Shown here piece after piece: positions 19,284 to 55,730 of a stretch of 64,000 bases of DNA. Position 1 is the first letter of the stretch. Every line of letters begins with the position of its first letter. This DNA is from Felis catus (Eukaryota). A program made the translations under genes and the position numbers. The stretch is taken from NCBI RefSeq assembly GCF_018350175.1, contig NC_058368.1, positions 97,218,001 through 97,282,000 on the forward strand. The letters run 5' to 3'. Under the pieces are notes generated by a model. It searched no databases and was not told where the DNA came from. It saw only the letters and a list, made by a program, of their open reading frames with translations.

Positions 19284-19790
19284 TGAAACAGTAATCAGAG
19301 TTTAAGGGAATATATTACATCCATGAAACAAGAATAGTATGCTATAAGCAAAGAATATTAAGTGAGAAAGAAAGATATCTTGAAGACAAAAATGTTAGCC
19401 AAAAAATAGTTCCATACAGGACTATAAGAAAAAGGTGACAAAATACACCAGAAAGTAGAATTTAAAAATAAAGAGATGGAAAAAAGGGGGAAAAATAGAA
19501 AATTAAAATAATATAGAAGTTCCCATATCTAATGAATAAGAGTTCCAAAAACAGAGAATAAAGAGAGAGAACTAAAACAAAAATGATACAAGAAAAAAAG
19601 TCTTCAAAACTGAAGGATACGAGTGTCTACAAAAAGGCATATCATCCTGAAATCTCAGATCCCTGGAGGGAAAAGGAACATTTATAAAAGTTTCCAGAAG
19701 AAAAACAAAGGGTCAGAAATCAACATGGCATTAGCTTTCCTGATAGGAACTCAGGAAGTTACAAGTGGATGAAACAATTCCTTAATGAGG

Positions 19791-19800
19791 AAAAAAAAAA

Positions 19801-19853
<53 letters not shown>
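19791..19853. repeat. Compound A/(AT)n/(AC)n microsatellite
   Basis: Direct reading. Confidence 0.9.
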
Positions 19854-19854
<1 letters not shown>

Positions 19855-20420
19855 TTCTTAACCACAGTAGTATACTCATCAAAACTATCACTCACATTTT
19901 CAGACATGCAAGTTCCTGAAAAGCTTTTCGCCCCCCGTGCCTTCCATCAGGAAGCAATTGGAGAAGGGGACCCACCAAAATGAGAGACAAAAGTCAGAAA
20001 AAGGAAGGTCTAAGATATAGCAACAAAAAGAGGCAAAGGTAATTCCAGGATAAGATGAAGGGCAGGCAGCAGATCTAGAAAACAATCCACTGCCACAATA
20101 ATCTAAACAGTGACTATCACACAAAACGTTTACATATAATCATACTGGGACAATGGAAGGAAGGCAAGAGCATGAGTAAGCAGAATGCGAAATTCTTGTC
20201 TTTCATAGTAGAAGTCAACAGATAACATCTACAGGTGAAAAACAGAAAGAGCAGTCTGGGCTCACCATTCAGAGATAAGGAAGTAAATGGCAAAGGAAAC
20301 AGCCCCTGGAGAAAAGGAATGAGAGTGGCAACGGGTGTAACTTGAAAACACTATGTTTCTATCAGAAACTTTTTAATTTTTAAGTTTTATGTATTTCATT
20401 CACATAAAAAGTAAGTTACA

Positions 20421-20645: not shown

Positions 20646-21015
20646 AAAATAAGTTACAGAGGAAATTAATTATTCTAATATTTTCTTCCTGGAAGTAAGA
20701 TTATGGACTTTGCGTATGCACAGTCCCCTTGGAGACCATCATTTTGTACAATAAGACAAACGATCTTATTTCAATAGCAAAATTCCTAAGAGCTCTGCAA
20801 GTGAGGAAACACAGAATAATGTAGAATTCGGAGAGAACCCTCCAGCCTATCTCAATCCATAAATGACATTTCAGATAGAACCAGAAGGTCTGCCTAGACT
20901 AAATCAGTTCTAGGCATCCAGAAACCCACTTTCATTTCCCCATACAAAGCAATCATTCTGATTCCAAAGTGCTCGGAAAAACCACTCAGAACACAAGTTA
21001 AAAATGTATTTTCCA

Positions 21016-21685
21016 CTGATGCATAGGGGCACTTGTACCTCAATGTTTATAGCAGCACTCTCAACAATAGCCAAATTATGGAAAGAGCCTAAATGTCCAT
21101 CAACTGATAAATGGATAAAGAAATTGTGGTTTATATACACAATGGAGTACTACGTGGCAATGAGAAAGAACGAAATATGGCCCTTTGTAGCAACGTGGAT
21201 GGAACTGGAGAGTGTGATGCTAAGTGAAATAAGCCATACAGAGAAAGACAGATACCATATGGTCTCACTCTTATGTGGATCCTGAGAAACTTAACAGAAA
21301 CCCATGGGGGAGGGGAAGGAAAAAAAAAAAAGAGGTTAGAGTGGGAGAGAGCCAAAGCATAAGAGACTCTTAAAAACTGAGAACAAACTGAGGGTTGATG
21401 AGGAGTGGGAGGGAGGGGAGGGTGGGTGATGGGTATTGAGGAGGGCACCTTTTGGGACGAACACTGGGTGTGTATGGAAACCAATTTGACAATAAATTTC
21501 ATATATTGAAAAAAAAATAAAAATTAAAACATAAAAATAAGCAAAAGATTTGAACCAGATACCTTACCAAAGACAACATAAATGTGGCAAATAGCATATG
21601 AAAAGATGTTCAATGTTATACAATTTTGGTGAAATGCAAATTAAAATAATAAAATATTACATTATATTATCTATTAGAAAAAGAA
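21016..21685 (+). mobile_element. Young 5'-truncated L1 (ORF2 end + 3' UTR + A tail to ~21540) with ~140 nt extra 3' sequence inside the TSD
   Basis: Intact ORF2 C-terminus (MFIAALSTIAKLWKEPKCPS...EISHTEKDRYHMVSLLCGS*); flanked by aaaaa(t/c)gtattttcca at 21000-21015 and 21686-21701. Confidence 0.9.
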
Positions 21686-21701
21686 AAAAACGTATTTTCC
21701 A

Positions 21702-21880
21702 GGGGCGCCTGGGTGGCTCAGTCGGTTGAGTATCCAGCTTCAGCTCACGTCATGCTCTCACAGTTCATGACTTCGAGCCCTGCACGGGGCTCTGTGCTGA
21801 CAACTCAGGGCCTGCTTTGGATTCTGTGTCTCCCTCTGTCTGCCCCTGCCCCCACTCTCTCTCTTAAAAACAAACATTAA
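21702..21880 (+). mobile_element. Can-SINE (shortened)
   Basis: ggggcgcctgggtggctcag head, short tail. Confidence 0.92.
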
Positions 21881-22056
21881 AAAAATGTAGACTCCAGAGT
21901 CCGCATGGCTCTGTGGATTTCTGATTAGTACAAAGTATGACATCAGGACAGGGAAATCTGCATTTTGACAACTGCCACAAGTGACTTTATATCATTGGTG
22001 CCCAGATTTTGAGAAGGAACCTCAAGGTGTTCTTCCTGAGTCCCATGCTTTAAGGG

Positions 22057-22402
22057 TAGGGGTTGGCACACCTTTTCTGTGCAGTGCCAGGTGGTTAGTA
22101 TTTTAGGCTTCACCAACCATTCAGTCTCTACTGTGAGCGTACTCATCTCCACGGTCGTAGCACAAAAGCAGGCACAGACAGTATGTAAATGAATGAATGT
22201 GGCTATGTGCCAATAAAAAAAGTGGTTGTCAACACTGAAATTTGGATTTTATACGATTGTGACATGTTACTGAATATTCTTCCTCTTTTGAGTTTTTTCC
22301 CCAACCACTTAAAATGTAAAAACCATTCCTTAATTCCAGGGCCTTACAGAACCAGGTGGGAGGCCTGGTGGGGCCCTTGAGCAGTAGTTTTACTGGCCTC
22401 TG
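22057..22402 (+). mobile_element. MER58B-like hAT-Charlie element
   Basis: MER58 5' arm plus the B-type segment 'cactgaaatttggatttt...aaccacttaaaatgtaaaaaccattcctta'. Confidence 0.75.
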
Positions 22403-22700
22403 CTCTCGGGCACTCCACAACCGCTGAGTGAGCAGAAGTTCTCGAGAGGAGTGCACCGGGAGAAGGAAGCTCCAGAAACCAGCATTCGAAAAGTTCTGTG
22501 ATTTGACATCAATCGTAAAAGCCCTATTACAAACAAAGCAGGCTGAGCAAAACAGGCACTGCCTCCCCTCCACATGTATTCTATTAGGCACAATGACTGA
22601 CGACTTCCTCTCATTGCCTATAGTCTTACCCCATTCTTTTGGGACTTGCTTTGATGATGATATTCATCTGATTGCACCCAAATAAAAATACCAGGTGGGA

Positions 22701-23119
22701 GGAGCGTCTGGGTGGCTCAGTGGGTTGAGTGTCCGACTTCGGCTCAGGTCATGATCTCATGGCTCGTGAGTACCAGCCCCACATCCGATTCTGTGCCTCC
22801 CTCTCTCTCTGCCCCTAACCCACTTCCACTTGCATTCTGTCTCTGTCTCTCTCAAAAATAAATAAACATTGGGGCACCTGGGTGGCTCAGTTGGTTGAGC
22901 GTCCAACTTCGGCTCAGGTCATGATCTCATAGTCTGTGAGTTCGAGCCCCAAGTCAGGCTCTGTGCTGACAGCTCAGAGCCTGGAGCCTGCTTCAGATTC
23001 TGTGTCTCCCTCTCTCTCTGCCCCTCCCCCGCTCATGCTCTGTCTCTGTCAAAAATAAAAATAAAAAAAATTTTTTTAAATAAACATTAAAAAAACAATT
23101 TTTTGTAACAAAATTAAAA
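22701..23119 (+). mobile_element. Nested Can-SINE pair (inner copy 22871-23077 inserted in the tail of the outer copy)
   Basis: Outer TSD aaaaataccaggtggga (22684-22700/23120-23136); inner TSD aaataaacatt (22860-22870/23078-23088). Confidence 0.92.
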
Positions 23120-23239
23120 AAAAATACCAGGTGGGAAAGGGGAAGTATGTAGCGTGGCTTCCTCAAAGTCTCCTTTCCTTCTCTGATCAGGACTCCTTTC
23201 AGAAAAATCAGGCTTCCACAGGGCTTTTAAATTGGGTTG

Positions 23240-40040: not shown

Positions 40041-40252
40041 TATTTTTTTTTATTTTTTAAATGCTTATTTATTTTGAGAGCACATATGCACAAGCTGAGG
40101 AACAGGCAGAGAGAGAGGGGGAGAGAGAATCCAAAGTGGAGTCTGCACTGCAGTGCAGAGCTCTGCGTGGGACTCAATCTCACCAACCATGAGATCATGA
40201 CCTGAGCCAAAATGAGAAGTCTACACTCTGACTGAGCCACCCAAGTGCCCCC
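40041..40252 (-). mobile_element. Can-SINE (older)
   Basis: T tail, ends tgagccacccaagtgccccc. Confidence 0.9.
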
Positions 40253-40271
40253 AAAAAAGTAACAACTTTTA

Positions 40272-40500
40272 TTTATTTTTTTTTTTAATTTTTTTTTCAA
40301 CGTTTATTTATTTTTGGGACAGAGAGAGACAGAGCATGAACGGGGGAGGGGCAGAGAGAGAGGGAGACACAGAATCGGAAACAGGCTCCAGGCTCTGAGC
40401 CATCAGCCCAGAGCCTGACGCGGGGCTCGAACTCACGGACCGCGAGATCATGACCTGGCTGAAGTCGGACTCTTAACCGACTGCGCCACCCAGGCGCCCC
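40272..40500 (-). mobile_element. Young felid Can-SINE
   Basis: Perfect 18-bp TSD aaaaagtaacaactttta (40254-40271/40503-40520). Confidence 0.97.
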
Positions 40501-40607
40501 TGAAAAAGTAACAACTTTTAAAAGCCAGGTCAAAATTTCAGTTAAAATGTTCACATAATACTACACATTATAAGTATTTTTAACAACTAAACCTACTAGT
40601 GATAGTT

Positions 40608-44499: not shown

Positions 44500-44670
44500 C
44501 TAAATTTTAACACTGTTCATTAACAGTTCCATTTTCCTGAGCTTGCGTTTGTTCTTTGGCATTGGCTTAGGATATAATCCATTTTTCAGAAGGTGTTCCT
44601 TGCTGAGGCGAATTTGAGCACCATGCTGCAGCTGGAAAGAGCACAAAGCTTGAAGAGGGCGAAGCAAAGT
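44500..44670 (-). CDS. DTWD2: DTWD2 terminal coding exon ([10 protein letters not shown]...[14 protein letters not shown])
   Basis: Polypyrimidine tract plus cag|ACT acceptor at 44671/44670; 56 codons then TAG at 44500-44502. In frame with the upstream exon (5557 nt intron); matches the recalled DTWD2 C-terminus. Confidence 0.95.
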
Positions 44671-45599: not shown

Positions 45600-46100
45600 G
45601 TAAGTGGCAGCAAAGAGCTTAAAGGTTTTAATTTTACAATGAACTCAGACATCGTGGCAGTCACTGGTGGTTGCTTCTCCACACTCATTCTTTTCTTCCT
45701 TATCATTCCAAATGTCATTCAAGGTGCCAATGTATCCAGCTAGTAATACTAACTGGCTAATGACACAGTCCATATAAGGAAAGGTAAGTTGAGGTCCTTG
45801 GGTGGGACTTCCAGAAACACTCTTTAAAATGGGACAGACTCAGCAGGCAGGGGCTTTTGTGCTTTCTTCTTGCCTGGAACAGGACTGTTAGAGGTGGGAT
45901 AACCATCATGTGACTACAATGCAATAAAGACAAAGATTAAAGTCAAATACATATGATGATGGGCAGAAAGAAAGAAGAAATCCCCAGCCCTGGACTGCTC
46001 ACCTCACATTACTTATTTACAGGAGAAAAAGAAGCCTCTATATGCATGGTTCAATCCCCACAATAAAGGCTCTGTTACATGCAATCAAATTGACATACCC
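45600..46100 (+). mobile_element. MLT1-type LTR relic
   Basis: 'gggacttccagaaacactcttt...aaccatcatgtgacta...ccagccctggactgctcacctc...ctgttacatgcaatcaaa'. Confidence 0.55.
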
Positions 46101-50227: not shown

Positions 50228-50356
50228 CTCCTGTATGTAATCATTTTTCTCCAAAATGGAAAGAGCAGCAGCTGCACATTCCAGGGTAGAAAGGCACCTA
50301 TTAGTCGGTTGTGTCCGAATTACATACTGACTAGAAACGCTAGTTTTTAACTGCAC
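50228..50356 (-). CDS. DTWD2: DTWD2 penultimate coding exon (43 codons: [43 protein letters not shown])
   Basis: Minus strand reads ...tttggtttcag|GTG...GAG|gtatgt. The 129 nt exon is phase 0/0 and open. The peptide carries the DTW-domain C-terminal 'LSTLE' motif and closely matches my recollection of mammalian DTWD2. Confidence 0.95.
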
Positions 50357-53969: not shown

Positions 53970-55730
53970 TACCTAGGAATAAATCTAACCAAAGAGGTGA
54001 AAAATCTATACACTGAAAACTATAGAAAGCTTATAAACTGAAGAAGACACAAAAAAATGGAAAAAGATTCCATGCTCCTGGATAAGAAGAACAAATAGTT
54101 AAAATGTCAATACTACCCAAAGCAATCTACATATTCAATGCAGTACCTATCAAAATAACACCAGCATTCTTCACAGAACTAGAACAAACAATCCTAAAAT
54201 TTGTATGGAACCAGAAAAGACCCCGAATAGCCAAAGCAATCTTGAAAAAGAAAACCAAAGCAGGAGACATCACAATCCCAGACTTCAAGCTATACTACAA
54301 AGCTGTAATCATCAAAACAGTATGGTACTGGCACAAGAACAGATAATCAATGGAACAGAATAGAGAACCCAGAAATGGACCAACAAATGCATGGCCAACT
54401 AATCTCTGAAAAAGCAGGAAAGAATATCCAATGGAATAAACACAGTCTCTTCAGCAAATGATGCTGGGAAAACTGGACAGAGACATGCAGAAAAATGAAC
54501 CTGGACCACTTTCTTACATCATACACAAAAAATGAACTCAAAATGGATGAAAGACCTCAATGTAAGACAGGAAGCCATCAAAATCCTCGAGGAGAAAGCA
54601 GGCAAAAACCTCTTTGATCTTGGCTGCAGCAACTTCTTACTCAACACATCTCCAGAGGCAAGGGAAACAAAAGCAAAAATGAACTGTTGGGACTTCATCA
54701 AAATAAAAAGCTTCTGCACAGCAAAGGGAACAATCAGCAAAACTAAAAGGCAACCAACAGAATGGGAGAAGATATTTGCAAACGACATATCAGATAAAGG
54801 GTTAGTATCTAAAATCTATAAAGAACTGATCAAACTCAACACCCAAAAAACAAATGATCCAGTGAAGAAATGGGCAAAAGAAATGAATAGACACTTCTCC
54901 AAAGAAGATATCCAGATGGCCAATCGACACGTGAAAAAAATGCTCAACATCACTCATCATCAGGGAAATACAAATCAAAACCACAATGAGATACCAACTC
55001 ACACCTGTCAGAATAGCTAACATTAACAACTCAGGCAACAAGAGATGTTGATGAGGATGTGGAGAAAGAAGATCTCTTTTGCACTGCTGGTGGGAGTGCA
55101 AACTGGTGCAGCCACTCTGGAAAACAGTATGGAGGATTCTCAAAAAATTAAAAATAGAACTACCCTACAACCCAGCAATTGCACTACTAGGCATTTATCC
55201 ACAGGCTACAGGTGTGCTGTTTTGAAGGGACACATCCACCCCCATGTTTATAGCAGCACTATCGACAATAGCCAAAGTATGGAAAGAGCCCACATGTCCA
55301 TCGATGGATGAATGGATAAAGAAGATGTGTATATATATACAATGGAGTATTACTCGGCAATCAAAAAGAATGAAATCTTGCCACTTGAAACTACATGGAC
55401 GGAACTGGAGGATATTATGCTAAGTTAAATTAGAGAAAGACAAATATCATATGACTTCACTCATATGAGGACTTTAAGAAACGGAACAGATGAACACAAG
55501 GGAAGGGAAGCAAAAATAATATAAAAACAGGGAGGGAGACAAAACATAAGAGACTCATAAATATGGAGAACAAACAGAGGGTTACTGGAGGGGTTGTGGG
55601 TGGGGGTGGGCTAAATGGGTAAAGGGCATTAAGGAATCTACTCCTGAAATCATGTTTGCACTATATGCTAAGTAAATGGATGTAAATTTAAAAAATAAAA
55701 TTTAATAAAATTTAAAAAATAAAAAAATAA
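53970..55730 (+). mobile_element. 5'-truncated carnivore L1 (ORF2 3' part + 3' UTR), antisense in the DTWD2 intron
   Basis: ORF2 peptides at 54104-54346 and 54532-55020 with stops/frameshifts; TSD aagaataccagataaca/aggaatagcagataaca. Confidence 0.95.

Follow-up and report, generated by a model that had tools for sequence, protein, structure and literature searches.

The locus and its features

We analysed a 64,000-nt stretch of the Felis catus genome (the window), in which a 5'-truncated young L1, a fragment of a much older L1 and a SINE follow one another in the same orientation. The site lies about 23 kb downstream of the stop codon and last coding exon of DTWD2. An intronic position within the DTWD2 coding span was rejected, as the last coding exon lies at about 44670-44503. 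DTWD2 exons in the window matched felid proteins at 97-100%, which marks the genome as felid. Positions 45827-45913 on the minus strand match the alternative last exon that the predicted isoform X2 of DTWD2 has in cheetah and Geoffroy's cat. The features are as follows.

50228-50356 and about 44503-44670, minus strand: the two final coding exons of DTWD2 (tRNA-uridine aminocarboxypropyltransferase 2), sharing 96-100% identity with felid proteins
20998-21004, plus strand: L1 endonuclease-type site TT/AAAAA, recognised from the sequence, with a putative nick between 20999 and 21000
21000-21015, plus strand: copy 1 of the target-site duplication, TT/AAAAATGTATTTTCCA, found by repeat comparison; 5' copy of the L1-plus-tag insertion
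21016-21285, plus strand: 5'-truncated young felid L1, comprising the last 89 ORF2 codons, open, plus the stop
21286-21508, plus strand: 3' UTR of the young L1, with its own AATAAA at 21491-21496
21509-21540, plus strand: A-rich linker, holding a TT/AAAA at 21524-21529
21541-21679, plus strand: the tag, a much older L1 fragment from late ORF2, broken by frameshifts and stops
21648-21653, plus strand: second AATAAA, 26 nt before the end of the homology
21680-21685, plus strand: a second, short A tail of 6 nt that includes one G and runs on into the five A's of copy 2
21686-21701, plus strand: copy 2 of the duplication, serving both as the 3' copy for the L1-plus-tag insertion and as the 5' duplication for the SINE
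21702-21880, plus strand: more diverged CanSINE-type element, beginning directly after copy 2
21881-21896, plus strand: copy 3 of the duplication, degenerate, just after the SINE tail; 3' duplication of the SINE

CanSINE and L1M-type are the names that we take to apply to these copies. Upstream of the site, 19500-20400 is A-rich and matched nothing else among the non-SINE parts of the window; presumably it resembles an ancient L1 ORF1 region.

A single target-site duplication encloses the young L1 and the tag

The repeat at 21000-21015 starts at a TT/AAAA-type motif, as the preliminary description had claimed, and motifs of this type are described for the L1 endonuclease in passages of PMC13141329 and PMC4084570. 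Copies 1 and 2 match at 15 of 16 positions, with a single T/C difference that makes a CG in copy 2. A 16-nt repeat with at most one mismatch was recovered in none of 3000 dinucleotide shuffles of 21509-22508. Across the window, a repeat with at most one mismatch was present within 1500 nt at 4 of the 137 TT/AAAA sites, namely the 21000 site, two SINE target duplications and one low-complexity A-run. Equally, no duplication was observed at the young L1's own tail, where the best candidate had 6/16 mismatches; the repeat had already been reported as absent there. The pair 21000-21015 and 21686-21701 is a real target-site duplication. This one duplication encloses the young L1, the A-rich linker, about 140 nt of old L1 ORF2 with an AATAAA, and the 6-nt tail.

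Two details of the repeat had been described differently. It was thought to recur only at 21686-21701; that copy is present, but a degenerate further copy was found at 21881-21896. The mismatch between copies 1 and 2 had been placed at a CpG, and copy 2 does have CG, but the variable position is T in copy 3, as in copy 1. Since copy 3 shares the T with copy 1, the mismatch may represent a T>C change in copy 2 rather than CpG decay.

A young L1 without a duplication of its own, at a site that is evidently insertion-prone, could also result from two insertions: the tag would have arrived first, as an orphan transduction (a class known from parts of PMC13009371) or a retroposed fragment, creating copies 1 and 2, and the young L1 would then have entered between copy 1 and the tag without duplicating its target. 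This sequence of events demands a blunt insertion at exactly the junction of copy 1 and the tag, whereas a normal insertion at TT/AAAA should have left another repeat of copy 1 behind the L1 tail, where there is none. The 15/16 match of the duplication also suits the age of the young L1, and we consider two insertions very improbable.

The 5' partner is a young felid L1

The open frame at 21016-21282 begins at the base directly after copy 1. The encoded fragment aligned with human ORF2p at residues 1189-1274 (E 8e-28). The top match of the 89-aa fragment among the best 120 of 1025 longer relatives was the L1-derived part of a Panthera-labelled protein (98% identity), and hyena LORF2 proteins in that set were at most 83% identical. 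The fragment differs from the top match at 2 of 89 residues, at its codons 9 and 32; because both changes set it apart from each of the five closest proteins examined, this comparison assigns them to the 21016-21285 copy or its donor. Similarly, the residue before the truncation point is Val in close relatives, so that microhomology at the 5' junction is put at 1 nt or less. The 3' UTR aligned to the 3' end of an older L1 at about 55226-55725. Both the AATAAA at 21491 and the A-rich stretch at 21509-21540 were found where the preliminary description had placed them after a young L1 3' end. The young age of the element is seen in its open frame and its two amino acid differences, and agrees with the 15/16 duplication. 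No Pfam family was returned for the 89-aa ORF2 end, and the exact 89-aa peptide was absent from the protein cluster table.

Two further L1 observations were made. A predicted HMG-CoA-lyase-like isoform of Panthera pardus includes a young L1 ORF2 C-terminus, which is either an exonisation or an annotation artefact. At 1-550 on the minus strand, a felid-type L1 ORF2 segment, truncated by the edge of the window, is open over 194 codons; this L1 is 85% identical to that at about 54350-54900.

The tag is a fragment of a much older L1

When compared with two older L1s in the window, 21541-21677 outscored 200/200 shuffles against each, confirming the earlier claim that about 140 nt of much older L1-like sequence follows the young L1. 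The tag is 73% and 69% identical to these two L1s, which are 81% identical to each other, and only about 39% identical to young felid ORF2 at the amino acid level (over 31 residues, with non-significant E-values). Because of these identities, the tag is classed by its sequence as an old L1 fossil and not a piece of the young family. It corresponds to a region of ORF2 roughly 70-115 codons upstream of the truncation point of the young copy. An origin as a rearranged part of the same young L1 was rejected on the low amino acid identity, and the felid-type L1 at 1-550 also differs where the region of the tag starts. A 29-aa peptide of the tag had no PDB match. A 22-nt primer from the tag gave 0 exact matches in metagenome, viral and genome contigs, scans with L1 peptides recovered no felid L1 loci, and plasmids contained no match to the insert; as these collections are non-mammalian, the negative results carry no weight. 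Nor did any sequencing run come up for 21541-22680, which is likewise no sign of absence.

Ungapped anchoring on four older L1 copies kept the homology of the tag in register to 21679, after which A's follow. At the other end, 21531-21540 resembles old L1, and further left the stretch is too A-rich to discriminate; for this reason the 5' boundary of the tag is blurred, and the tag may start near 21531, inside the stretch first called the L1 tail. The preliminary description had the flank spanning 21541-21677. Its start and sequence fit, but the homology reaches 21679 and the start is possibly near 21531. The linker is probably the remnant of the donor L1 poly(A) together with the A-rich beginning of the donor flank.

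The second AATAAA at 21648-21653, reported earlier as about 25 nt before a short A run, was measured at 26 nt. We read it as having arisen by decay within the fossil L1. This spacing falls inside the 10-30 nt range given in the relevant part of PMC13009371, with a chance rate of about 0.12 and a tail of about 6 nt. Since about 12% of composition shuffles yield an AATAAA at this position, the second signal is modest evidence for transduction. The untemplated tail, which contains a G, amounts to only about 6 nt besides the five A's that belong to the duplication. Just past 21679, old L1s are rich in A, so part of the second tail could be templated, as a gapped alignment allows; this counts against the transduction reading.

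The tag probably arrived with the young L1

If the tag belonged to the locus from the start, its flanks should bear on this. The upstream flank, compared with the L1 region expected before the tag, was equalled by 53/200 and 140/200 shuffles. In the downstream flank, a weak L1-like score was obtained at 22183-22283, about 290 nt past copy 3 (4/200 shuffles as high); it was not repeated against the second older L1 (74/200 shuffles as high). As the upstream flank is not L1-like, the tag is most likely an island within the duplication, with neither flank clearly continuing the old L1, although the weak downstream score counts against this. With no clear continuation of the old L1 on either side, the young L1 and the tag very probably came in one insertion.

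A tag native to the locus would leave copy 2 as the duplication of the SINE alone and copy 1 as a coincidence or a separate local duplication. The SINE's 5' duplication does account for copy 2 independently, the window holds many old L1 fossils, and the single weak downstream score points the same way. Copy 1, however, matches copy 2 at 15/16 positions, starts at TT/AAAA and ends exactly at the start of the L1; none of the 3000 shuffles reproduced this match, and the upstream flank is not L1-like. We therefore regard a native tag as extremely improbable.

The same target was probably used by a SINE

The SINE at 21702-21880 is 76-80% identical to its best matches among the window SINEs. It differs from an in-window consensus, which mixes subfamilies, at 21/119 positions (17.6%), and it sits in the more diverged half of the 32 SINEs surveyed. 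In this survey of 32 SINE heads, copies 2 and 3 were the best-scoring duplication for the 21702 SINE. Copy 3 has three mismatches to copy 1 and four to copy 2; the three are adjacent and possibly one event, so that they date the SINE poorly. Among 370 A-runs on the plus strand, four are followed by a comparable match, three of these being copies 1-3.

Two elements are thus each flanked by copies of the same target, at 21000, 21686 and 21881. The SINE, at 17.6% from a mixed-subfamily consensus, may be older than the young L1, which differs at 2/89 residues; the same nick was probably used twice, by the SINE first. SINE first and L1-plus-tag second, at the same nick and with the same stagger, is the simplest order that we infer. 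One mobile unit made up of the L1, the tag and the SINE between copies 1 and 3 was rejected, as it leaves the better-matching copy 2 unexplained. The pre-insertion felid site would accordingly be expected to carry one copy, the SINE and the degenerate third copy, not a lone copy.

Passages of PMC4084570 report site reuse for felid SINEs, and parts of PMC3219598 report it in human NF1, once with an equal-sized duplication. As in these felid CanSINE hotspots and NF1 cases, where independent insertions at one nick show overlapping or equal-sized duplications, our locus has two insertions at a single target. From what these sources give, the published cases mostly lie on different chromosomes or in different lineages, with one Lynx locus having adjacent SINEs; in contrast, one haplotype here carries a SINE and an L1 stacked together, with three target copies.

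Other stacked SINEs were seen in the window. At 22681-23136, one SINE (at 22871, with a perfect duplication of 12 nt) lies inside the tail of another, older one that begins at 22701, and a 21-nt repeat (22680-22700 and 23116-23136) encloses both. At about 40110-40520 on the minus strand, two stacked SINEs (heads at 40500 and 40251) have overlapping target duplications; this pair is possibly a second case of site reuse in the window.

Partnered 3' transduction as the probable origin of the insertion

Read-through of a weak poly(A) signal and target-primed reverse transcription are established L1 biology. The locus displays one duplication round both pieces, an endonuclease motif, two signals, two tails and pieces of different age. 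The reading that we favour, at a probability of roughly 0.8, is partnered L1 3' transduction at a target site that had been used before. A 3' transduction had been proposed in the preliminary description, and the proposal is supported by anatomy alone: duplication, L1, tail, foreign sequence, poly(A) signal, tail, duplication.

The proposed events would be as follows. A CanSINE would first have entered the TT/AAAAA nick at 20999/21000, with a duplication of about 16 nt from which copies 2 and 3 descend. At another locus, a full-length young felid L1 would have lain, in matching orientation, within the A-rich late ORF2 of a fossil L1, and its transcription would have continued past its own AATAAA, ending 26 nt after the second AATAAA, that of the fossil. 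ORF2p, following the usual L1 mechanism, would then have nicked the same TT/AAAAA site and reverse-transcribed the tail, about 140-150 nt of flank and about 490 nt of L1 before stopping, the new 16-nt duplication being copies 1 and 2. The resulting insertion is dead and probably neutral; there was no sign of function for it.

The same single duplication, shared orientation and two tails would also be yielded by a chimera of two RNAs, in which reverse transcription started on a polyadenylated fossil-L1 RNA and then continued, by a switch or by ligation, on a young L1 RNA from its poly(A) end. This would likewise be one insertion, of pieces that were never DNA neighbours. Template switching and RNA ligation are described for same-orientation L1 chimeras in passages of bioRxiv 2025.02.02.635956, where U6/L1, Alu/L1 and other LINE-1 chimeras similarly join two same-orientation sequences within one duplication. 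In the cases given there, however, the foreign RNA lies on the 5' side and L1 on the 3' side, whereas the young L1 is the 5' partner here. Furthermore, the TT/AAAA in the linker adjoins the start of the old-L1 homology, as expected of a donor L1 inserted there. We judge such a chimera improbable. Such an insert would be an L1 chimera of reverse polarity, in which ORF2p began on the transcript of a dead fossil and jumped to the 3' end of a young L1 RNA, at the nick that had earlier received the SINE and was recut with the same stagger. If true, this polarity would record directly that L1 families far apart in age had recombined at the RNA level.

Comparison with published transductions

The anatomy that favours partnered 3' transduction has published counterparts. 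The Fig. 1 legend of PMC4862182 gives the same transduction layout. According to the parts of PMC4862182, PMC13009371 and PMC13141329 concerned, transductions in humans, other primates and dogs share with our locus the duplication, the endonuclease site, a truncated L1, a first tail, extra sequence and, probably, a signal 10-30 nt before the second tail. They differ in host, which is a felid here, and in that the donor here is deduced. Transduction rates in these sources vary: 2.5-8.8% for 3' transduction in non-human primates (PMC4862182), about 25% of insertions, with the signal 10-30 nt before the end of the transduction (PMC13009371), and about 1.8% of dimorphic canine L1s for mappable transductions (PMC13141329). 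The low canine figure speaks against a transduction here, although repeat-only tags such as ours are discarded from it. The pipeline outlined in PMC13141329 discards tags without 25 unmasked bases; unlike the canid cases retained by it, the tag here is wholly fossil L1 and would be discarded where 25 bp unmasked are needed. In the same canid data, as far as this source details them, 3 of 27 mapped transduction sources adjoin an L1 in the reference, and because of this low fraction a source lacking an upstream L1 would still be compatible with transduction. Our literature search, with most subscription papers outside its coverage, returned nothing on felid L1 transductions or this locus. We regard the insertion as a clear but ordinary felid case: primates and dogs offer well-documented 3' transductions, and site reuse is likewise known from felids and humans.

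The case shows a class of transduction that is dropped by repeat-masking pipelines, and it bears on the low estimates of transduction in carnivores. Through the tag, a felid donor L1 that is active or was so recently could be found, together with further copies derived from it. Similarly, the stacked SINE and L1 form a two-step presence/absence marker near DTWD2, the exons of which serve as a landmark for the orthologous site.
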